Virus record (IMG/VR): IMGVR_UViG_2675903278_000003
Length of the DNA stretch: 27,747 nucleotides
Origin: a virus
Taxonomy: Duplodnaviria; Heunggongvirae; Uroviricota; Caudoviricetes
Strand: one strand, 5' to 3'
A program made the translations under genes and the position numbers. Of this stretch, positions 19,375-27,747 are shown one piece after another; the stretch's first letter is position 1, and each line of letters begins with the position of its first letter. A model generated the notes under the pieces. That model saw only the letters and a list, made by a program, of their open reading frames with translations. It was not told the DNA's origin and did no database searches.

Positions 19375-20252
19375 GCCATCTGAGCCATCTGCGAACGTTT
19401 CTTGAGGCCTATCGCTCTGGCTCCTTTTCAAAGGCGGCAGAACTACTGGGCATCACTCAGCCCGCGGCGTCACAGCATATCCAGTCTCTTGAGACTCTGG
19501 TTGGTAAGCGTCTGTTTATCAGGCAGGCCAGAGGCGTGACGGCAACCGAAGCTGCGGATGAGCTTGCCCGCTCAGTTTCACCCTTCATTGATGGTCTGGA
19601 AGAAAAGCTGTCCTCTTTCCGGTCAGGCTCTGTACGCGGGGGAACAATTAATCTGGCAGGACCGCCAGATTTTATTCATTCCCGGCTTGGGACAGTAATG
19701 GCTCCACTAATGAAGGAGGGGTATCGCCTACGCTTTCATACCGGCAATAAGCAACGTATTTATTCCCTTTTGCATGACGGGAGCGCCGATCTCGCTGTTA
19801 CCGCATCTATGCCTGATGACCGTCTGTACGGCTATGCACATCTACTGACTGAACGCATGCTCCTTGTTCATGCTCCCGCCATGTCAGAGATCATCGGATC
19901 AGAACCTGGTGCTGAAACGCTTGCCTCATTACCGCTGATTGCTTATGACGAAGAGTTGCCACTGATTAGAGCGCTCTGGGCCTCCATGTTTCAGAGAGCC
20001 CCTGAGATGCAGGCTACATTCACCATTCCGGATTTACGTATTATCCGCGACTTGGTCTGTGACGGCCACGGGTGGACAGTGCTGCCGGATTATCACTGTG
20101 ACAATGACCTGAAAAGTGGTCGCCTGATTTCAGTGACACCTGCAGACCTCGCTCCGACTAATCATCTTTATCTGGTCTGGAACAAAAGGACGGCTAATAA
20201 CAGCCGAACCGCCTATGTTCGGGATTACATTCTTAAAACGTTTCCGCGTTGA
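19371..20252 (+). CDS. LysR-family transcriptional regulator
   Basis: N-terminal HTH 'LRTFLEAYRSGSFSKAAELLGITQPAASQHIQSLE' then a substrate-binding-like domain; ATG overlaps the ChaC-like stop (ATGA); the first codons contain a 9-bp tandem duplication 'agccatctgagccatctg' (SHLSHL). Confidence 0.8.
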   Translation: MSHLSHLRTFLEAYRSGSFSKAAELLGITQPAASQHIQSLETLVGKRLFIRQARGVTATEAADELARSVSPFIDGLEEKLSSFRSGSVRGGTINLAGPPDFIHSRLGTVMAPLMKEGYRLRFHTGNKQRIYSLLHDGSADLAVTASMPDDRLYGYAHLLTERMLLVHAPAMSEIIGSEPGAETLASLPLIAYDEELPLIRALWASMFQRAPEMQATFTIPDLRIIRDLVCDGHGWTVLPDYHCDNDLKSGRLISVTPADLAPTNHLYLVWNKRTANNSRTAYVRDYILKTFPR

Positions 20253-20296
20253 TGTTTGAAACGGATGATTGGCGATGCGTATCATAAGTTACGTAT

Positions 20297-20326
20297 GTCC
20301 GCTTCTGGCACAAAGCAGACGCCCAC
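20297..20326. repeat. 30-bp repeat copy 1 ('gtccgcttctggcacaaagcagacgcccac'), partner at 23970-23999
   Basis: 24 of 30 positions identical to the copy at 23970-23999 by eye, with an exact shared core 'ttggcacaaagc' / 'ctggcacaaagc'; lies in the convergent intergenic region between the LysR and DUF2254-like genes. Confidence 0.55.
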
Positions 20327-20382
20327 TCTCACGCGAATGCTTTGCCCTTGACTTGCCAACAACCGTATCGCTTGCTCCGCAA

Positions 20383-21675
20383 CTATGGTTTTTTATTAGA
20401 ATCTTCGCCACTAAATAAATTATAATAAATTGATTTTATTAGATATCTGTCAGAATCTATATGGTCAGCACGAGTAGCATGCTCTAATGTTTCAAATGCT
20501 AGGGTTTGTGCGGCTTCAGCAAAAATTCCAGGCCAACCCTTACTCAGCATCGACAGTCCTTTAAGTACCCTTATCTGAATTTCCCTCATACTGGCACCAT
20601 CGCGCGCAACAGGTGAGAAAAAGTCTTCAAGTAGATCGTTATTCTGAAGTGGTGCAACATGTACAGAAGGATATTTCACTTCTATTTCATCAGATTTATT
20701 CTGCGCGTAAGCGGAAAGTATACGTACACCTCTGCCAATGACATCAATGGCGGTTCCAGGATCGTTCACTGCGGGGGAAAGGGCTCGGCAGGCTATTTCG
20801 GCCATGACGCTAAGACAAAATCGGGGGTCCTGAGCAAATGAACGTACATCCGAGACAATAATCGTCTCAAGTAAATCGGTGCTGATTGATGACTCCTGGC
20901 CCTGACTCAGGTACAAAACTGGCGTGGACGGATGTATGAAACTGCCCGGCTGCGCCACGAGGTATACATGACGGGGATCATTGGTCAGCAGCTTGCTGAG
21001 TTTCACCATATCAACATATTCAACATAGCCAATCTTTTTCGGATAAACTGCAACCGTTCCTTTCGGCTGTTCATTGTTCTCAAGCCATGGATATCCGCCG
21101 AGACAGGGATTTCTTGCTCTCGCAATAAATGTTTCGATGGCCGCCTGTTCTACTTTTGCCGTTGTCTCACCAACCCTCCCCAGAGAGGTCAAATGCTGTA
21201 TCCAGCGAAGCAATGTGATGAGGATTAAGGCAATGACAACCAGTGTTACAATGAATAAAATGACTCTCCCCCTTTCTCCATAAGCTCCCATATTGAGGGC
21301 AATAATCCCTACCAGACTGAAGAGAAAAGAACCGATGAAGGTGGCCAGTACATTTTGTGTGGTGACGTCTTCAACAACTAAACGAGTAGCTCTGGGAGTC
21401 ACATTAGTAGTGGCTGAACCGTAGGCTGTGACCATGATGCTCAGCGAAAATGTGGTCACTGCCAGCATACTCGATGCCAGTATGTTCAGAATGTTATCGA
21501 CTGCTTCCGCACCAACCTTCACGGAAACCGACTCAGGTATCATTGATTTAAAAAGAATTGATAAAAGGGCCGTTATTATTGCGACAATTGCGAATAACGT
21601 TGCCCTGAACCATAGTTTTTTAAATGTCTGCTTCAGCATCCATTTCCAGCGTGAAATCATTCTGCATTCCCTCAT
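20383..21675 (-). CDS. DUF2254-like membrane protein (N-terminal TM helices plus large soluble domain)
   Basis: 430-aa ORF with about four N-terminal hydrophobic helices; family name from memory; start may be at the internal Met (MISRWKW...). Confidence 0.6.
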   Translation of the reverse strand: MRECRMISRWKWMLKQTFKKLWFRATLFAIVAIITALLSILFKSMIPESVSVKVGAEAVDNILNILASSMLAVTTFSLSIMVTAYGSATTNVTPRATRLVVEDVTTQNVLATFIGSFLFSLVGIIALNMGAYGERGRVILFIVTLVVIALILITLLRWIQHLTSLGRVGETTAKVEQAAIETFIARARNPCLGGYPWLENNEQPKGTVAVYPKKIGYVEYVDMVKLSKLLTNDPRHVYLVAQPGSFIHPSTPVLYLSQGQESSISTDLLETIIVSDVRSFAQDPRFCLSVMAEIACRALSPAVNDPGTAIDVIGRGVRILSAYAQNKSDEIEVKYPSVHVAPLQNNDLLEDFFSPVARDGASMREIQIRVLKGLSMLSKGWPGIFAEAAQTLAFETLEHATRADHIDSDRYLIKSIYYNLFSGEDSNKKP

Positions 21676-21723
21676 ATTGCAGCCGGGATAAATAAATGCC
21701 GCCTCTGTGGCGGCATGTTGCTG

Positions 21724-23727
21724 TTAACGAACCAGATGCAGGAAGTGCAGGTGTTTTTCGTACTGGTCCAGTATGTCATTAATCAGCTGTTCCTGATTCC
21801 AGCCCATTACATCATAATTTTGGCCGCCCTCTTTGAGATAGACTTCAGCGCGATAATATCGATGTTGTTCACTCTGCTGCTCATCATTATCCAGCGCAGC
21901 GAGCGCGAAGGTCGGTGAGTTATACCCGCGAAGCCTCACTTCATATATATAATTCAGCTCGTTGCCCAAATCGACTTCAAGGCGAATACGATCCTCGGCG
22001 GCGTCACTGATGTGGCTTATCGTTCCCTGCTTGTTAAGTTCCTCCTGAACCAGCGTCATGGCGGGTTGGATAATGTCGTCCATAAAACGTTTCACAAGAG
22101 AGCGCTTCGGCAAATACGCGATATTGCGTAACCTTCTCTGCCAGGGAATTGGGTTACGTGCAGCCGTAGGAGCAATAGTCGCCATGCTAAGGCTTTCACG
22201 CTTGGTCAAATCCCGACGCAGGGCTTTTAACAGTCCGTATATGGATATTAATAAGATAACTGAGAAGGGCAATGCACTCGCTATCGTTACGGTTTGCAAC
22301 GCACTCAGCCCCCCTGCGATCAGCAGGGCAATAGCAACAACGCCCATGAGCGATGCCCAGAAAATTCGCTGCCAGACGGGCGTGTTTGCCACCCCACCTG
22401 ATGCCAGAGTATCCACAACCATTGCCCCCGAATCAGCAGACGTTACAAAGAAGACGATGACCATCGCCATTGCAATGAATGACAGCACGGAAGAGAACGG
22501 GAAATGCTCCAGGAAATTAAACAGGGCAAGCGCAACATCCTGCTGAACGGTATTGGCGAGGTCAGTGGCGCCCTGGTTCATGATGAGATAGATGGCGCTG
22601 TTTCCAAACACCGTCATCCACATGAGCGTAAAGCCGGCGGGAACAAACAACACGCCAGTCACGAACTCACGAATTGTCCTGCCGCGGGAAACGCGTGCAA
22701 TGAACATACCTACAAACGGCGACCATGAAAGCCACCATCCCCAGTATAATAATGTCCAGCCCCCCAGCCAGTTGCTCGACTTGGGTTCATACGCGTAAAG
22801 GTTGAACGTTTTACTCACCAGTTCCGACAGATAACCACCCGTATTTTCCACAAATGACTTCAGCAGAAGCACAGTGGGACCCAGGCACAAGACCAGCGCC
22901 AGGAGCAACACCGCCAGGCCCAGATTAAGCTCAGACAGGATGCGTATTCCCTTGTCCAGGCCGGACACCACCGAAATCGTCGCTAACCCCGTGATGACCA
23001 CGATCAAAATGACCTGTACCGTTTCATTGATGGGCACGCCGAAAAGATGGTTCAAACCGGCATTCACCTGCAATACACCGTAACCCAGCGATGTTGCAAC
23101 GCCAAAGACAGTGCCTATCACGGCGAAGATATCAACCGCGTGGCCTATAGGCCCGTAAATGCGATCGCCGATAATGGGATAGAGCGCAGAACGCAGCGTT
23201 AAAGGCAGACCGTGACGGTAACTGAAAAAGGCCAGAATCAGCGCCACGATGGCATAAATTGCCCATGCGTGCAGACCCCAGTGGAAGAACGTCAGGCGCA
23301 TGGCTTCCTTCGCTGCCGCAACGGTCTCTGGAGTGCCGACAGGTGGCGAAAGATAATGCATCACAGGTTCGGCAACGCCAAAGAACATCAGGCCGATCCC
23401 CATCCCTGCCGAAAAAAGCATCGCGAACCAGGAGTGGTAGCTGAAATCAGGCTGCGCATGGTCTGGGCCCAGCTTTATATCACCGTAACGTGAGAGTCCA
23501 AGGAACGTGACGCTCAGTAAAATCAGGGCCACAGCAAGTATGTAGAACCAGCTGGCATTCGTGAAGATTTGTTGCTGAAGTAGTTTAAAATTTTTGTCGG
23601 CGACATCCGGGAATACGGCGGCAAAGGCGACAAGAAGGAAAATTAGCAAAGCAGATGTAAAGAATACCGCTTTGTTAATCTGGCTTGTAGACTTCTTTGG
23701 GGTTGTATCATTTTCACTCATAATCAT
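21724..23727 (-). CDS. BCCT-family transporter (BetT/BetU-like choline or glycine-betaine transporter)
   Basis: 667 aa, multi-TM with Trp-rich segment 'GGWTLLYWGWWLSWSPFVGMFIARVSRGRTIREF' typical of BCCT transporters, long hydrophilic C-terminal tail. Confidence 0.85.
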   Translation of the reverse strand: MIMSENDTTPKKSTSQINKAVFFTSALLIFLLVAFAAVFPDVADKNFKLLQQQIFTNASWFYILAVALILLSVTFLGLSRYGDIKLGPDHAQPDFSYHSWFAMLFSAGMGIGLMFFGVAEPVMHYLSPPVGTPETVAAAKEAMRLTFFHWGLHAWAIYAIVALILAFFSYRHGLPLTLRSALYPIIGDRIYGPIGHAVDIFAVIGTVFGVATSLGYGVLQVNAGLNHLFGVPINETVQVILIVVITGLATISVVSGLDKGIRILSELNLGLAVLLLALVLCLGPTVLLLKSFVENTGGYLSELVSKTFNLYAYEPKSSNWLGGWTLLYWGWWLSWSPFVGMFIARVSRGRTIREFVTGVLFVPAGFTLMWMTVFGNSAIYLIMNQGATDLANTVQQDVALALFNFLEHFPFSSVLSFIAMAMVIVFFVTSADSGAMVVDTLASGGVANTPVWQRIFWASLMGVVAIALLIAGGLSALQTVTIASALPFSVILLISIYGLLKALRRDLTKRESLSMATIAPTAARNPIPWQRRLRNIAYLPKRSLVKRFMDDIIQPAMTLVQEELNKQGTISHISDAAEDRIRLEVDLGNELNYIYEVRLRGYNSPTFALAALDNDEQQSEQHRYYRAEVYLKEGGQNYDVMGWNQEQLINDILDQYEKHLHFLHLVR

Positions 23728-23969
23728 TTATTCCATTAATTAAATCCGCACTGGATAGAAGGTACTACCTCTCACAGAGTAGCAAAGTTCAACTGGCTAT
23801 GCGGGGTTAATCGGAATGCATGGTGGAATGAGTGCCGATACAAATCATCCTATATTCTAAGGAGTTTTAAGTTACTCAGCCTGCCAATTACTGGGGCATT
23901 TAATTTGTATGATCTGTATCAAAGCTGGGATATAAGTTAAGTGAAGTATATTAGGCACGAATTACCAGC

Positions 23970-23999
23970 GTCTGCTCTTGGCACAAAGCGGACAACCAC
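23970..23999. repeat. 30-bp repeat copy 2 ('gtctgctcttggcacaaagcggacaaccac')
   Basis: See copy 1 at 20297-20326; this copy lies in the promoter-side intergenic region upstream of the BCCT gene. Confidence 0.55.
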
Positions 24000-24061
24000 G
24001 CTAGCTCTACCCTGTGCCACAAAATGTCAATTTGCATCTGAACTAATGCACTTTAATCTCG

Positions 24062-24484
24062 TCACTTCAATAAATACCGAACATCCCCCTGATAAAACGA
24101 CAATATGCGCTGCATAACTTCGCTCTTCCGGCACTCGCGACAGATTATGTTTAGGCGACTGTCGTAGCGACGTATTTCTCCGTCAGGTAATGACCAGATA
24201 AGGTCCGGATCAACCACAACCGGTTTCTTCAGCTTTGCCCTCGATAATTTTTTGCGGGCATTTTGCCAGTCTTTACGAGCCTGTTCAGACGGGAATAACC
24301 CGTAGCCAGAATTGTATACATCGCCACTGGCAACCAGCTCTCTGGCCAGAACGCTCATCAGATATCTTGTTGCCCCAGTTTTAGCTTCCAGTTGTCGTAA
24401 CGTCTCGCGCCCACTCTGGCGTACGAGTTCAAGAACCTGCCCTTTAATTTTTTCCCGCTCTTCTTGTGTAAAAACTTTTGCCAC
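24062..24484 (-). CDS. Hypothetical phage protein (140 aa, GTG start), downstream of the O-like gene
   Basis: SD 'AGGAGGG' upstream of GTG at 24484; basic protein with CxxC near the C-terminus; no Walker A motif, so not a DnaC/P-type helicase loader. Confidence 0.55.
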   Translation of the reverse strand: MAKVFTQEEREKIKGQVLELVRQSGRETLRQLEAKTGATRYLMSVLARELVASGDVYNSGYGLFPSEQARKDWQNARKKLSRAKLKKPVVVDPDLIWSLPDGEIRRYDSRLNIICRECRKSEVMQRILSFYQGDVRYLLK

Positions 24485-24524
24485 AAGCCCTCCTGAAAAT
24501 TACCTCATGACCAGAAATTAACAC

Positions 24525-25595
24525 TTACCCCCTGAAGCCCGGCGGAATTTCGTTATCCGGTTCAGAAATATGATTCACACAACGCTGGTTGTTCGTGCCG
24601 CTTACCGGGAGCAACCAGGGGTTCTCAAAATTCCGGTCCGGTCCAAAAAACGTCGTCGCTCGCTGAACAAATTCCGTTCCCGTTTTCCCGGTAGCCGCCA
24701 AGTATCTTGCGTAACGCCTCACGCCATCCAGCATGGCCTCTGGTGGCACCCCCTCGCGTAATCTGGCCTTCCAGGCACTGAAAGCGGATTTCTTCGGGTT
24801 TGCCCCAGCACGCAACGGGTACTCCCGCCAGACCTGTTCGAACACATCCGGATAATCCACTCGTCCCACAGACTGCCCGGTGTTTTCCGGGACTACCCGA
24901 TCGGCTTCCCGCTGAATGGCGGAATCGGCTTCAGGCTGCTGCAGTTGGTGTGATTGCTCCGCCCTTGCGGTCATCACCTGCTGCACAGCGCCCGAATCGG
25001 CTTTCAGCGCATACGCTGAATCGGCTTCCGGTGTCGTGCCTGCTGGCTGACCAAGATTGACGGTCTGAACATCCCCTGCCTGGTTCGTGGCGTTTTTTAC
25101 GCCATGGACCATAGTGTTTTGATCTTCTTGATCTGTATCTTTATCTGTATCTTTATCTGTCGTGACTCGTCGTGACATGTGCGTGACATTTCGTGACGCG
25201 CCGTGACAATCGCCATTTTGTTCCCGCTTTCTTTCCCTCTCTCGCTGCGCCCTCTTGCGCTCTGCAGGAGATTTTGCGGTTTGCGAAATATTGCCGTTGT
25301 CCTCTTTAAGCACCTGGCGTTTTTCCCATCCAGTGATTAAATCACCATCAAGTACCCGCCCCTGCATCGTCTGCAAAATTGAATCAATTACCTCTTCTGT
25401 CACGTCGAGCGCACTTGCCAAATCTTCTGTCGTGACATCAATGTGACCTCGCGTGACATTTCGTGACGCGCTCACCAGGAGGTGGATATACACTGCCATC
25501 ACTGTTGCAATTGGCTGTCCTGACACCCTGGCAATTGTTCGCCACTTAGGGTCATTTGGCATGTCATGCCATAATCTGAGCCAGGCGTTAGCCAT
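24525..25595 (-). CDS. Replication initiator (lambda O-like / YdaU-like replisome organiser) containing internal iterons
   Basis: 356 aa from ATG at 25595 (MANAWLRLWHDMPNDPKW...); the coding sequence contains two clusters of GTGAC-type repeats, as lambda O carries its own ori iterons; low-complexity acidic middle (DKDTDKDTDQED); located downstream of Cro-like/YdaT-like genes. Confidence 0.6.
   Translation of the reverse strand: MANAWLRLWHDMPNDPKWRTIARVSGQPIATVMAVYIHLLVSASRNVTRGHIDVTTEDLASALDVTEEVIDSILQTMQGRVLDGDLITGWEKRQVLKEDNGNISQTAKSPAERKRAQRERERKREQNGDCHGASRNVTHMSRRVTTDKDTDKDTDQEDQNTMVHGVKNATNQAGDVQTVNLGQPAGTTPEADSAYALKADSGAVQQVMTARAEQSHQLQQPEADSAIQREADRVVPENTGQSVGRVDYPDVFEQVWREYPLRAGANPKKSAFSAWKARLREGVPPEAMLDGVRRYARYLAATGKTGTEFVQRATTFFGPDRNFENPWLLPVSGTNNQRCVNHISEPDNEIPPGFRG
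25161..25210. repeat. Iteron cluster A: five copies of a 10-bp-periodic 'cGTGACa' motif, adjacent to an AT/GATC-rich stretch (about 25115-25160) with tandem 'tatctttatctg'
   Basis: 'cgtgactcgt cgtgacatgt gcgtgacatt tcgtgacgcg ccgtgacaat' read directly from the sequence; the 20-mer 'gcgtgacatttcgtgacgcg' recurs exactly at 25451-25470. Confidence 0.7.
25427..25470. repeat. Iteron cluster B: four GTGAC-type repeats including an exact 20-bp copy of part of cluster A
   Basis: 'ctgtcgtgacatcaatgtgacctcgcgtgacatttcgtgacgcg'; also within the O-like coding region (encodes SRNVT-type peptide repeats). Confidence 0.65.
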
Positions 25596-25666
25596 ACTCA
25601 CCTCTTTTGATACCGAATCTTTTTACTCACAAATTGCCGGAAGTGATCCGGTATGAATATTGCGAG

Positions 25667-26092
25667 TCAATGCACAGCCACAATATTTCCTGCAGGGCCA
25701 CCACGATTCATCTGGTTGAAACCAGCGATCGCCACTGCGACAAAATCATCAGCGTCTCTCACCAGTCGTTCCCGCGTCTCCACTAGTTCCCGAAAATAGG
25801 CTGAGCTATGGCTGCGCATTCGGGCCACCAGCAGAGGTGGCATTGCTTTTTCGATAGCTGGTAACAACGCCTGAATTTTTTCAACTGCATCAGGGGTGTC
25901 TTTCTCTACCCAGCGGAAAATTTTCTGGGTATTGCGAGCCAGGGCTTCCGGATGGCTGTCGTCATACAGTTCTGGGAACGTCATACCCAGTTCAAAATAA
26001 GCCCTGGTTATTTCAGCTGCCGGAACTTTTTCACCGTCCGGATGCGCCCAGGCATTCATCGCCATGCGGATGTGTTCATGCTTGATTTTCAT
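25667..26092 (-). CDS. YdaT-like (CII-like / DUF1019) regulatory protein
   Basis: 141-aa 'MKIKHEHIRMAMNAWAHPDGEKVPAAEITRAYFELG...'; second gene of the rightward-equivalent early operon after the Cro-like gene, as ydaS-ydaT in Rac; name from recalled similarity. Confidence 0.55.
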   Translation of the reverse strand: MKIKHEHIRMAMNAWAHPDGEKVPAAEITRAYFELGMTFPELYDDSHPEALARNTQKIFRWVEKDTPDAVEKIQALLPAIEKAMPPLLVARMRSHSSAYFRELVETRERLVRDADDFVAVAIAGFNQMNRGGPAGNIVAVH

Positions 26093-26357
26093 GAATCAAG
26101 CTCCTAGAAAGTGGTTGTGTTAACATTTTGGTATCTTCCAGCTCGGGCCAAATATTCATCCAATCAAAAGGCCTTAGTTGCTGACGTGTAACTTCACCAT
26201 TACTGGCTCGCTCAATAAGGACACATAACGATGCCCCTAACACTTGACCTTTACTCAATGCCTTTCTTAGATAACCGATGCTGGTACCACACTCGCATGC
26301 AAACATACGCTGTTCATCTGACGAAAGAGAATTGAGAAATATTCTTAATTCTTCCAT
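26076..26357 (-). CDS. Cro-like / YdaS-like HTH regulator
   Basis: 93 aa with HTH-like 'RMFACECGTSIGYLRKALSKGQ'; SD 'AAGGAG' upstream; divergently transcribed from the repressor gene across an operator-rich intergenic region. Confidence 0.65.
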   Translation of the reverse strand: MEELRIFLNSLSSDEQRMFACECGTSIGYLRKALSKGQVLGASLCVLIERASNGEVTRQQLRPFDWMNIWPELEDTKMLTQPLSRSLIHENQA

Positions 26358-26461
26358 AGCTACTCCTTAGTAAACACAGCAAAGAACACCCATAGGTAAA
26401 CAAAAGTCAATACCCACAGGTTGTTTACCTTGCAGTAATCGCATCTATTATTTACCTATGG
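26358..26461. promoter_or_regulatory. Divergent immunity-region promoter/operator segment with at least three copies of a 'CCATAGGTAAACA'-like motif in both orientations
   Basis: 'cataggtaaaca' forward at 26391-26402, 'ggttgtttacct' (reverse) at 26420-26431, 'atttacctatgg' (reverse) at 26450-26461 overlapping the repressor ATG, and a weaker 'tagtaaaca' at 26368-26376 over the Cro-like SD. Confidence 0.6.
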
Positions 26462-26877
26462 ACAAATATGAATTTAGACGACAGCAACTCATCAAAATTC
26501 GTGATGAGAAATGCGATGGTAAAGCGGTTAACGTGGCCAGAAAGATCGGGCGCGAGCCTTCTTATGTATCAAGAATGTTGTACCCAGAGGGGAAAAAGGG
26601 AAAAAAACGGATCGCTGATGATATGGTGGAGATTATCGAAGAGTCCTTTGGGTTACCCCGGGGATGGATGGATGGTATCGTTTCATCATCAACGAACACA
26701 GCCTCCAGTTATGAAACAAGGGTTCTAACGCCACGACAACGTATTTTTTTAGATCTCTTAGACGAACTGCCAGAAAGTGAAGCGGATAACTTATTAAAAA
26801 CTCTTGAAGAGAAAAAACAGTATTACAATATGATCTACGAAGAAATCCGTAAAAAGAAAGCACAAAACGCATCATAG
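26458..26877 (+). CDS. Prophage repressor (RacR/CI-functional analogue), HTH protein
   Basis: 139 aa with HTH 'KAVNVARKIGREPSYVSRML'; divergent from the Cro-like gene; no recognisable SD, and the start codon lies within an operator-like repeat (leaderless-like arrangement). Confidence 0.65.
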   Translation: MDKYEFRRQQLIKIRDEKCDGKAVNVARKIGREPSYVSRMLYPEGKKGKKRIADDMVEIIEESFGLPRGWMDGIVSSSTNTASSYETRVLTPRQRIFLDLLDELPESEADNLLKTLEEKKQYYNMIYEEIRKKKAQNAS

Positions 26878-26922
26878 CTCACCAAACAACTAGTCACCAG
26901 TTAAGACACCGCAAAAAGTTAC

Positions 26923-26960
26923 CCATGGGTATTTACTTTTTAAATACCTATGGGTATCCT
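26923..26960. promoter_or_regulatory. Second pair of operator-like repeats downstream of the repressor gene
   Basis: 'cccatgggtatttac' and 'aatacctatgggtat' at 26923-26960, related to the motif in 26358-26461; the region beyond is cut by IS1 at 27073. Confidence 0.45.
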
Positions 26961-27087
26961 TCTTTTCATACCAACCCACCCCGCCCCACAGAATGCAGGG
27001 CAATACTTCGAGTTACCAGGCAGTGGTCAGGGGTTAAGTAGCCAGCCCGAGGCGTAAGAACATGACGGCGGGGGTAATGACTCCAAC

Positions 27088-27591
27088 TTATTGATAGTGT
27101 TTTATGTTCAGATAATGCCCGATGACTTTGTCATGCAGCTCCACCGATTTTGAGAACGACAGCGACTTCCGTCCCAGCTGTGCCAGGTGCTGCCTCAGAT
27201 TCAGGTTATGCCGCTCAATTCGCTGCGTATATCGCTTGCTGATTACGTGCAGCTTTCCCTTCAGGCGGGATTCATACAGCGGCCAGCCATCCGTCATCCA
27301 TATCACCACGTCAAAGGGTGACAGCAGGCTCATAAGACGCCCCAGCGTCGCCATAGTGCGTTCACCGAATACGTGCGCAACAACCGTCTTCCGGAGACTG
27401 TCATACGCGTAAAACAGCCAGCGCTGGCGCGATTTAGCCCCGACGTATCCCCACTGTTCGTCCATTTCCGCGCAGACGATGACGTCACTGCCCGGCTGTA
27501 TGCGCGAGGTTACCGACTGCGGCCTGAGTTTTTTAAGTGACGTAAAATCGTGTTGAGGCCAACGCCCATAATGCGGGCAGTTGCCCGGCAT
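27088..27591 (-). CDS. insB: IS1 InsB reading frame (expressed as InsAB' fusion by -1 frameshift)
   Basis: 167-aa frame matching the partial copy at 2-283 apart from Q vs R at one position. Confidence 0.85.
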
Positions 27592-27747
27592 CCAACGCCA
27601 TTCATGGCCATATCAATGATTTTCTGGTGCGTACCGGGTTGAGAAGCGGTGTAAGTGAACTGCAGTTGCCATGTTTTACGGCAGTGAGAGCAGAGATAGC
27701 GCTGATGTCCGGCGGTGCTTTTGCCGTTACGCACCACCCCGTCAGTA
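27510..27747 (-). CDS. insA: IS1 InsA, N-terminally truncated by the window edge
   Basis: '...[74 protein letters not shown]' is the zinc-finger/HTH InsA protein; the frame is open to the end of the window. Confidence 0.85.
27526..27536 (-). promoter_or_regulatory. IS1 programmed -1 ribosomal frameshift site (A6C slippery motif)
   Basis: Minus-strand 'TTAAAAAACTC' at the insA/insB overlap. Confidence 0.7.

Follow-up and report, generated by a model that had tools for sequence, protein, structure and literature searches.

A predicted lambda-style operator set of the mEp043 immunity type in a Rac-like cryptic prophage of Escherichia coli

Introduction

The immunity region of phage lambda is organised around the divergent promoters PR and PRM, with three right operators (OR1-3) and three left operators (OL1-3). 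OR1 and OR2 lie 24-25 bp apart, and the second operator is located near -42 of PRM. A gap of 6 nt separates the PRM -10 hexamer from the cI ATG, and the cI mRNA has been shown experimentally to be leaderless.

In CP-933P, leaderless paaR2, which is accompanied by OR and OL operators, has been demonstrated by 5' RACE (PMC8630535). For the motif strings described below and for the operators of phage mEp043, the literature yielded no published operator description.

The immunity region of a Rac-like cryptic prophage of E. coli occupies the right end of the window (the whole 27,747-nucleotide stretch analysed here). A sequence-only reading had proposed an OR/OL-type operator set around a repressor gene in this region and had left its specificity unassigned. 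Here, the repeat unit is redefined, its conservation across relatives is described, and the locus is compared with known switches.

Results

Genetic setting

From position 20000 to 27072, the window is 99.99% identical to strain H7 (NZ_CP010171). Four genes are relevant to the immunity region:

24525-25601, minus strand: replisome organiser gene.
25667-26092, minus strand: YdaT-family gene, one residue off PDB 3c4r.
26076-26357, minus strand: Cro-like gene of the YdaS family, 93 aa (Pfam YdaS_toxin, E 9e-6).
26458-26877, plus strand: repressor gene, 139 aa, with an mEp043 cI-type N-terminal HTH, a linker and a DicA-like helical C-terminal domain.

The H7 annotation labels the 139-aa gene a 'hypothetical protein' and places ydaG-like, ydaF, sieB, kilR, ydaE, racC, recE and recT after it. 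The Cro-like gene has the Shine-Dalgarno (SD) sequence AAGGAG at 26363-26368; its product matches two Cro-like structures (PDB 8c7k and 8co2) at E 1e-10, and its homologues are divergent from the repressor gene in 32 related loci. The window YdaT is closely related to that of CP-933P (PDB 8bt1; E 5e-80). A perfect TTGATT-N6-AATCAA inverted repeat (26082-26099) lies over the YdaT-like start codon (CAT 26090-26092) and corresponds to the YdaT box of CP-933P and Rac (PMC9986795, PMC11879457). By-eye inspection for a PRE-like promoter near this box revealed no convincing -10.

Host genes (a LysR regulator, DUF2254 and a BCCT transporter) directly adjoin the DUF977 and replisome-organiser genes (about 20000-24500), which indicates a prophage remnant without late genes on that side. 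IS1 copies are present at both window ends (27073-27747 and 1-298). About 100 nt past the predicted PL start, the right copy is inserted in the leftward early operon's leader, and its orientation is opposite to that of the IS1 found within kilR of strain H7.

The repressor protein

Pfam identifies no domain in the 139-aa repressor, and no S24 autocleavage domain; sequence searches against solved structures give no match below E 0.07. In the AlphaFold model (mean pLDDT 85), N-terminal helices span residues 3-18, 23-30, 34-40 and 54-63, followed by a disordered linker (77-87) and a helical hairpin (92-138). The best structural matches of the model are XRE-type HTH proteins: the SPC32H phage repressor, restriction-modification controller (C) proteins and HigA.

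Residues 1-76 are common to many 220-242-aa repressors with an S24 (LexA-like) C-terminal domain (PF00717), found in Salmonella, Edwardsiella, Klebsiella, Pantoea, Yersinia and others, and in phages mEp043 and CharmingMan. Residues 85-139 are instead common to DicA and to the repressors of Tritos and vB_EcoS-666R9. Taken together, the alignments show one predicted DNA-binding domain joined to either a cleavable or a non-cleavable type of C-terminal domain. Full membership of the DicA family (NCBIfam NF007257) was considered and rejected, with a score of 23.9 bits against a cut-off of 101 over the C-terminal 50 aa only.

M1 is invariant in the protein alignment. Six database entries start 2-9 unconserved residues upstream of the invariant MDKYE; these starts are probably gene-caller errors, as would be expected for a leaderless gene without an SD. 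Some E. coli entries contain a frameshifted variant (MNLDDSNSS...) that begins at ATG 26468 and returns to the frame of the repressor near residue 50, which suggests that the repressor is pseudogenised in some strains.

The repeat unit and the predicted sites

The sequence-only reading had described copies of the 13-mer CCATAGGTAAACA on both sides of the repressor gene (26358-26960). A repeated motif is indeed present there, and the 13-mer is not its unit. With up to 3 mismatches allowed, the whole window contains 7 matches against 6.7 expected; those within the region are confined to 26390-26402 (0 mismatches), 26449-26461 (1) and 26941-26953 (3). As this window-wide count is not above chance, the 13-mer was abandoned in favor of a palindrome. 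The predicted sites are palindromes of 12-14 bp, (T)TACC-YRYR-GGTA(A), none of which is assigned a strand:

26387-26398: O1, CACCCATAGGTA; palindrome scan, position weight matrix (PWM) and conservation; left half mutated from TACC.
26411-26422: O2, TACCCACAGGTT; palindrome scan and conservation; weak right half, typical of the family.
26426-26437: O3, TACCTTGCAGTA; palindrome scan and conservation; overlaps the predicted PRM -35.
26450-26467: half-site over the start codon, ATTTACCTATGGACAAAT; PWM 7.1; one good half-site only.
26920-26931: OL1, TACCCATGGGTA; exact palindrome, PWM and recurrence in relatives.
26945-26956: OL2, TACCTATGGGTA; exact palindrome, PWM and recurrence in relatives.

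Exact TACC-N4-GGTA occurs only twice in the 27.7-kb window, at OL1 and OL2, and O1, O2 and O3 are copies with one mismatch. Five of the ten window copies with at most one mismatch fall in 26387-26956, which is 2% of the window (p about 1e-6, binomial estimate). A PWM trained on related loci only, with the window excluded, was then scored over the whole window. OL1 (20.2), OL2 (18.6), O1 (12.4), O3 (7.7), the ATG site (7.1) and O2 (4.2) are all among the seven best matches. Taken one by one, O2, O3 and the ATG half-site do not outscore the best chance matches from shuffled sequence, so their support is positional.

The intergenic region between the Cro-like and repressor genes spans 100 bp, in which O1-O3 overlap the predicted PR and PRM hexamers. 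Relative to the repressor ATG, the 12-mers start at -71 (O1), -47 (O2) and -32 (O3); O1 is centred at -65.5 and O2, which abuts the PRM -35, at -41.5. The right half of O3 reads GGTA in 60 of 80 close relatives. The number and identity of the copies reported between the divergent genes had to be revised: O2 had been missed, O3 had been seen only as an inverted fragment, and the copy said to overlap the Cro-like SD (about 26362-26377) scores about -47 and is not a site. The 'alternating orientation' of the copies has no meaning for a palindrome. The two copies reported 3' of the repressor gene are both exact palindromes, namely OL1 and OL2.

An extra half-site-like element, GTTTACCTT, occurs by the Cro-like SD at about -115 from the ATG in three related loci. 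Its orientation differs from that of GTAAACA near the Cro-like SD of the window.

Conservation across relatives

Site conservation was assessed in 41 loci that encode the repressor DNA-binding domain, drawn from one-genome-per-species contigs. At least one site lies upstream of the ATG in 38 of these 41 loci. The full three-site set is found in 31 loci (mEp043 and CharmingMan added), with starts at about -73, -48 and -33 from the ATG and spacings of 25 (O1-O2) and 15 (O2-O3). The 31 loci span Enterobacterales, Aeromonas, Neisseria, Burkholderiales, Xanthomonadales and Nitrosomonadales. Across them the half-sites are essentially invariant and the spacers vary; most spacers at O1 and O2 follow Y-R-Y-R, those at O3 are unconstrained, and O2 has a weak right half throughout.

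Related loci totalling 130.6 kb contain 95 exact sites, where about 2 would be expected, and all but one of them lie at OR or downstream of the repressor gene. In at least 13 loci the downstream sites are paired at a spacing of 25-26 bp. In CharmingMan, three TACC-N4-GGTA sites precede the repressor gene and two follow it. The motifs are thus conserved across related immunity regions, the condition on which the OR/OL-type interpretation had been staked, and that interpretation gains comparative support.

The repeats could in principle reflect chance similarity in AT-rich intergenic DNA, as the literal 13-mer count by itself would allow. Both the clustering within the window and the conservation of position and half-sites across classes of Proteobacteria argue against this. 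The conserved positions and the excess of exact sites refute it, and its probability is close to nil.

Co-occurrence of sites and regulators bears on which protein binds. Because the Cro-like gene is found alongside the sites in 32 loci, co-occurrence by itself does not distinguish between the two proteins, and the sites might be bound only by the Cro-like YdaS-family protein while the 139-aa protein recognises something else. Four Klebsiella loci speak against such a division: they lack a nearby YdaS-like gene and yet retain sites at -73, at -33 and downstream, an indication that the repressor domain is what binds them. Moreover, in 38 of 41 loci the sites occur together with the repressor N-terminal domain, their constant partner. 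Binding by the Cro-like protein alone is accordingly regarded as highly improbable.

A natural domain swap provides a second line of evidence. Tritos and vB_EcoS-666R9 encode the window-type C-terminal domain within window-type flanks but have another N-terminal domain, and GTAC-type repeats occur at the corresponding places. K-12 Rac has a leftward leader like that of the window, another repressor N-terminal domain and different operators. Together, these cases show that the predicted operators covary with the N-terminal DNA-binding domain.

Predicted promoters and the start of the repressor mRNA

Three promoters, PR, PRM and PL, were inferred from hexamer geometry:

26405-26410 and 26383-26388, minus strand: predicted PR, -35 TTGACT, 16-nt spacer and -10 hexamer; read from the sequence.
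26424-26429 and 26446-26451, plus strand: predicted PRM, -35 TTTACC, 16-nt spacer and -10 TATTAT; promoter scan.
26932-26937 and 26955-26960, plus strand: predicted PL, -35 TTTACT, 17-nt spacer and -10 TATCCT; read from the sequence.

Placement of the -35 and -10 hexamers relative to the sites follows a matching geometry at PR and PL. The PR -35 directly follows O2, and the PR -10 shares its first two bases with O1; in relatives, too, the -35 comes after O2 and the -10 overlaps O1. The window reads TGTTCT at this -10; all 80 close relatives have TATTCT, and distant loci have TAAACT or TAATAT. Likewise, the PL -35 directly follows OL1 and the PL -10 shares TA with OL2. The PL hexamers align with TTGACA/TATAGT of K-12 Rac, and the PL layout recurs in 21 related loci.

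At PRM, the predicted -10 ends 6 nt before the ATG, and transcription would begin at its A (26458). The absence of an SD noted in the sequence-only reading is borne out, since 26440-26457 reads cgcatctattatttacct. Of 31 related loci, 27 have a -10-like hexamer that stops 6-7 nt short of the ATG. This spacing, the lack of an SD and the invariant first Met support the prediction that the repressor mRNA is leaderless, and the parallel drawn earlier with lambda cI gains support.

The start codon had also been placed within an operator copy. A half-site is present there; a full operator is not, and the half-site is specific to this lineage, being invariant in 80 close relatives and absent from all distant relatives. 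If this copy were a true fourth operator, the repressor or the Cro-like protein would block PRM at +1. It matches 12 of the 13 bases of the O1-derived 13-mer, its PWM score is the fifth best in the window, and its invariance in close relatives would fit such a role. The -10 hexamer and the start codon also account for that invariance, however, and the match is confined to one half-site: the remaining half, ATGGACAAA, is coding sequence conserved for the protein. TACC is found at the ATG position in 0 of 41 distant loci and is likewise missing from CharmingMan and mEp043. A fourth operator is therefore unlikely.

The OL pair and the PL leader

Downstream of the repressor gene, two further features involve the OL pair and the transcript that would follow from PL:

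26920-26967, plus strand: RNA hairpin formed by OL1 and OL2, followed by a U-rich tract; terminator scan; putative terminator of the repressor transcript.
26970-27072, plus strand: conserved leader of the leftward early operon, aligned with K-12 Rac and Tritos; interrupted by IS1 at 27073.

The terminator scan describes the hairpin as a 16-bp stem with a 5-nt loop and a T-rich tail, UCCUUCUUUU; its folding energy is -22.9 kcal/mol (z = -6.3). Reading of the sequence between the stop codon (26877) and 26920 revealed no other hairpin, so the OL pair may also end the repressor transcript. PL transcripts would begin beyond the hairpin. An Rfam search over 26300-27100 returned only sub-threshold chance matches, on the OL hairpin.

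Taken to its extreme, this would make the OL pair (26920-26956) mainly an intrinsic terminator, with only a secondary likeness to the upstream sites. The stable stem and T-rich tail, the position of the hairpin as the only one seen after the repressor stop codon, and the similar T-tract in Klebsiella relatives are consistent with that reading. Yet base pairing between any two similar palindromes 25 bp apart is unavoidable, and the pair recurs with its flanking -35 and -10 in 21 loci, many of which have no T-tract. In mEp043, the OL pair comes after a separate canonical terminator and before N. Furthermore, the stem extension in close relatives changes from TAAATACC to TGGATACC without a compensating change, which argues that operator function is the primary constraint. 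A predominantly terminating role is thus quite improbable. A dual role of the OL pair, as operator and terminator, is put forward tentatively, as possible rather than probable.

The PL leader, about 100 nt long, is almost identical in the heteroimmune Rac prophage of K-12, in Tritos and in many E. coli phages. An Rfam search gave no match for it, and its predicted folding is not unusual (z = 0.4).

Carriers, polymorphism and the state of this copy

Of 5426 complete E. coli genomes, 735 (about 13.5%) carry the operator region, and 19 of these 735 carriers have the exact 83-nt window haplotype. Polymorphism was counted among 80 near-identical relatives:

26391-26394, 26415-26418 and 26430-26433, operator spacers (N4 of O1-O3): 9 of 12 columns polymorphic.
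Operator half-sites: 1 of 24 columns.
Other intergenic columns: 8 of 64.
Coding columns: 18 of 300 (Cro-like gene) and 18 of 420 (repressor gene), about 5%.

Most of the spacer changes are transitions that preserve Y-R-Y-R.

Position 26387 is C in the window and T in all 80 close relatives and all 31 distant loci. This T>C change converts TACC to CACC in O1 and, at the same time, alters the second base of the predicted PR -10 (TATTCT to TGTTCT). With both elements mutated, this copy may no longer switch. Together with IS1 at 27073 inside the PL leader, the change may have left both early operons crippled here.

Discussion

At this locus and among its relatives, the sites, their positional conservation across the family, their covariation with the DNA-binding domain and the promoter geometry are observed features. 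They are very probably the components of an ordinary lambda-style switch, in which the repressor and its Cro-like partner control three promoters through TACC-N4-GGTA sites; which protein binds where, as well as cooperativity, activation, leaderless translation and termination, is inferred. The 139-aa repressor is most likely a dimer whose N-terminal HTH recognises (T)TACC-YRYR-GGTA(A), and the Cro-like YdaS-family protein probably binds these sites too.

In such a switch, PR would be the promoter of the Cro-like/YdaT-like/replication operon, with O1 over its -10 and O2 over its -35. Repressor bound at O1 and O2, 24-25 bp apart, would silence PR. From O2, centred at -41.5, it could activate PRM; O3 covers the PRM -35, and its occupancy would give negative autoregulation. 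Transcription from PRM would yield a leaderless repressor mRNA. At PL, which would drive the ydaG-ydaF-kilR-racC-recET operon, OL1 and OL2 would act with the geometry seen at PR and, as RNA, may terminate the repressor transcript.

Three further proposals go beyond the ordinary switch. First, a domesticated repressor that combines an mEp043-type domain with a non-cleavable DicA-like C-terminus could give SOS-proof immunity against mEp043-type phages; this possibility is raised by the non-cleavable C-terminal domain and by the presence of the operator region in a sizeable set of E. coli genomes (the 735 carriers). Second, the OL pair might serve additionally to terminate the repressor mRNA, which is predicted to be leaderless. 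Third, diversifying selection on the operator spacers could be tuning the switch, as suggested by the polymorphism of 9 of the 12 spacer columns among near-identical prophages. The probability of these readings is put rather low.

No new regulatory principle emerges: the arrangement is classical, and the sites were previously undescribed. A RefSeq 'hypothetical protein' without a Pfam domain gains a proposed function and a precise predicted DNA target, and a conserved immunity cassette comprising a Cro-like gene, three operators, a predicted leaderless repressor and an OL pair is defined across several classes of Proteobacteria. The specificity leads to testable predictions on cross-immunity with mEp043-type phages.

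Like lambda, the window has predicted divergent PR and PRM with three operators, a second set at PL and an O1-O2 distance of 24-25 bp. Unlike lambda, the operator sequence is unrelated, only two OL sites are present, the repressor lacks an autocleavage domain, and rexAB is absent from the interval between the repressor gene and OL. O2 and O3 are 15 bp apart, again unlike lambda, and the lambda logic may therefore not transfer in detail.

The PaaR2/YdaS/YdaT system of CP-933P resembles the window in its divergent repressor and ydaS-ydaT genes, about 100 bp apart (PMC8630535, PMC9986795), in its OR-type operators and PL/OL set, and in the TTGATT-N6-AATCAA box over the ydaT start. Its operators differ, being 18-bp repeats with the consensus GTTTAGTAA. 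The paaA2-parE2 toxin-antitoxin genes that follow the CP-933P repressor have no counterpart after the window repressor.

K-12 Rac shares with the window its prophage type, gene order, neighbours and PL leader (PMC5700373, PMC11879457). The similarity between K-12 YdaS and the window Cro-like protein is marginal, over 28 aa. Homology of the window repressor to RacR was rejected (BLASTP E 2.3). DicA of the Qin prophage matches the window repressor over its C-terminal 46 aa (33% identity, E 1e-7). Both proteins are short and have no S24 domain, and their N-terminal DNA-binding domains differ.

The closest correspondence in operators and DNA recognition is with mEp043 (PV340537.1 / NC_019706). The N-terminal domain of its cI is 65% identical to that of the window repressor over 86 aa, the predicted recognition segment, REPSYVSRMLYPEGK, is identical in both, and its Cro is 73% identical to the window Cro-like protein. 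As in the window, there are three OR sites (starting in mEp043 at -72, -47 and -32), the OL pair is 25 bp apart, and a -10 hexamer (TAGAAT in mEp043) lies 6 nt before the repressor ATG; in mEp043 a leader and the N gene then follow the OL pair. The two systems diverge beyond the DNA-binding domain: mEp043 cI has 228 aa, the length class with an S24 domain, whereas the window protein ends in a 55-aa DicA-like helical domain, and mEp043 cI is paired with cII and N, whereas the window repressor is paired with YdaT and Rac-type early genes. Because the sites, the predicted recognition segment and the Cro protein agree with those of mEp043, the specificity that had been left unassigned is predicted to be the mEp043 immunity type, carried here with a different C-terminal domain.
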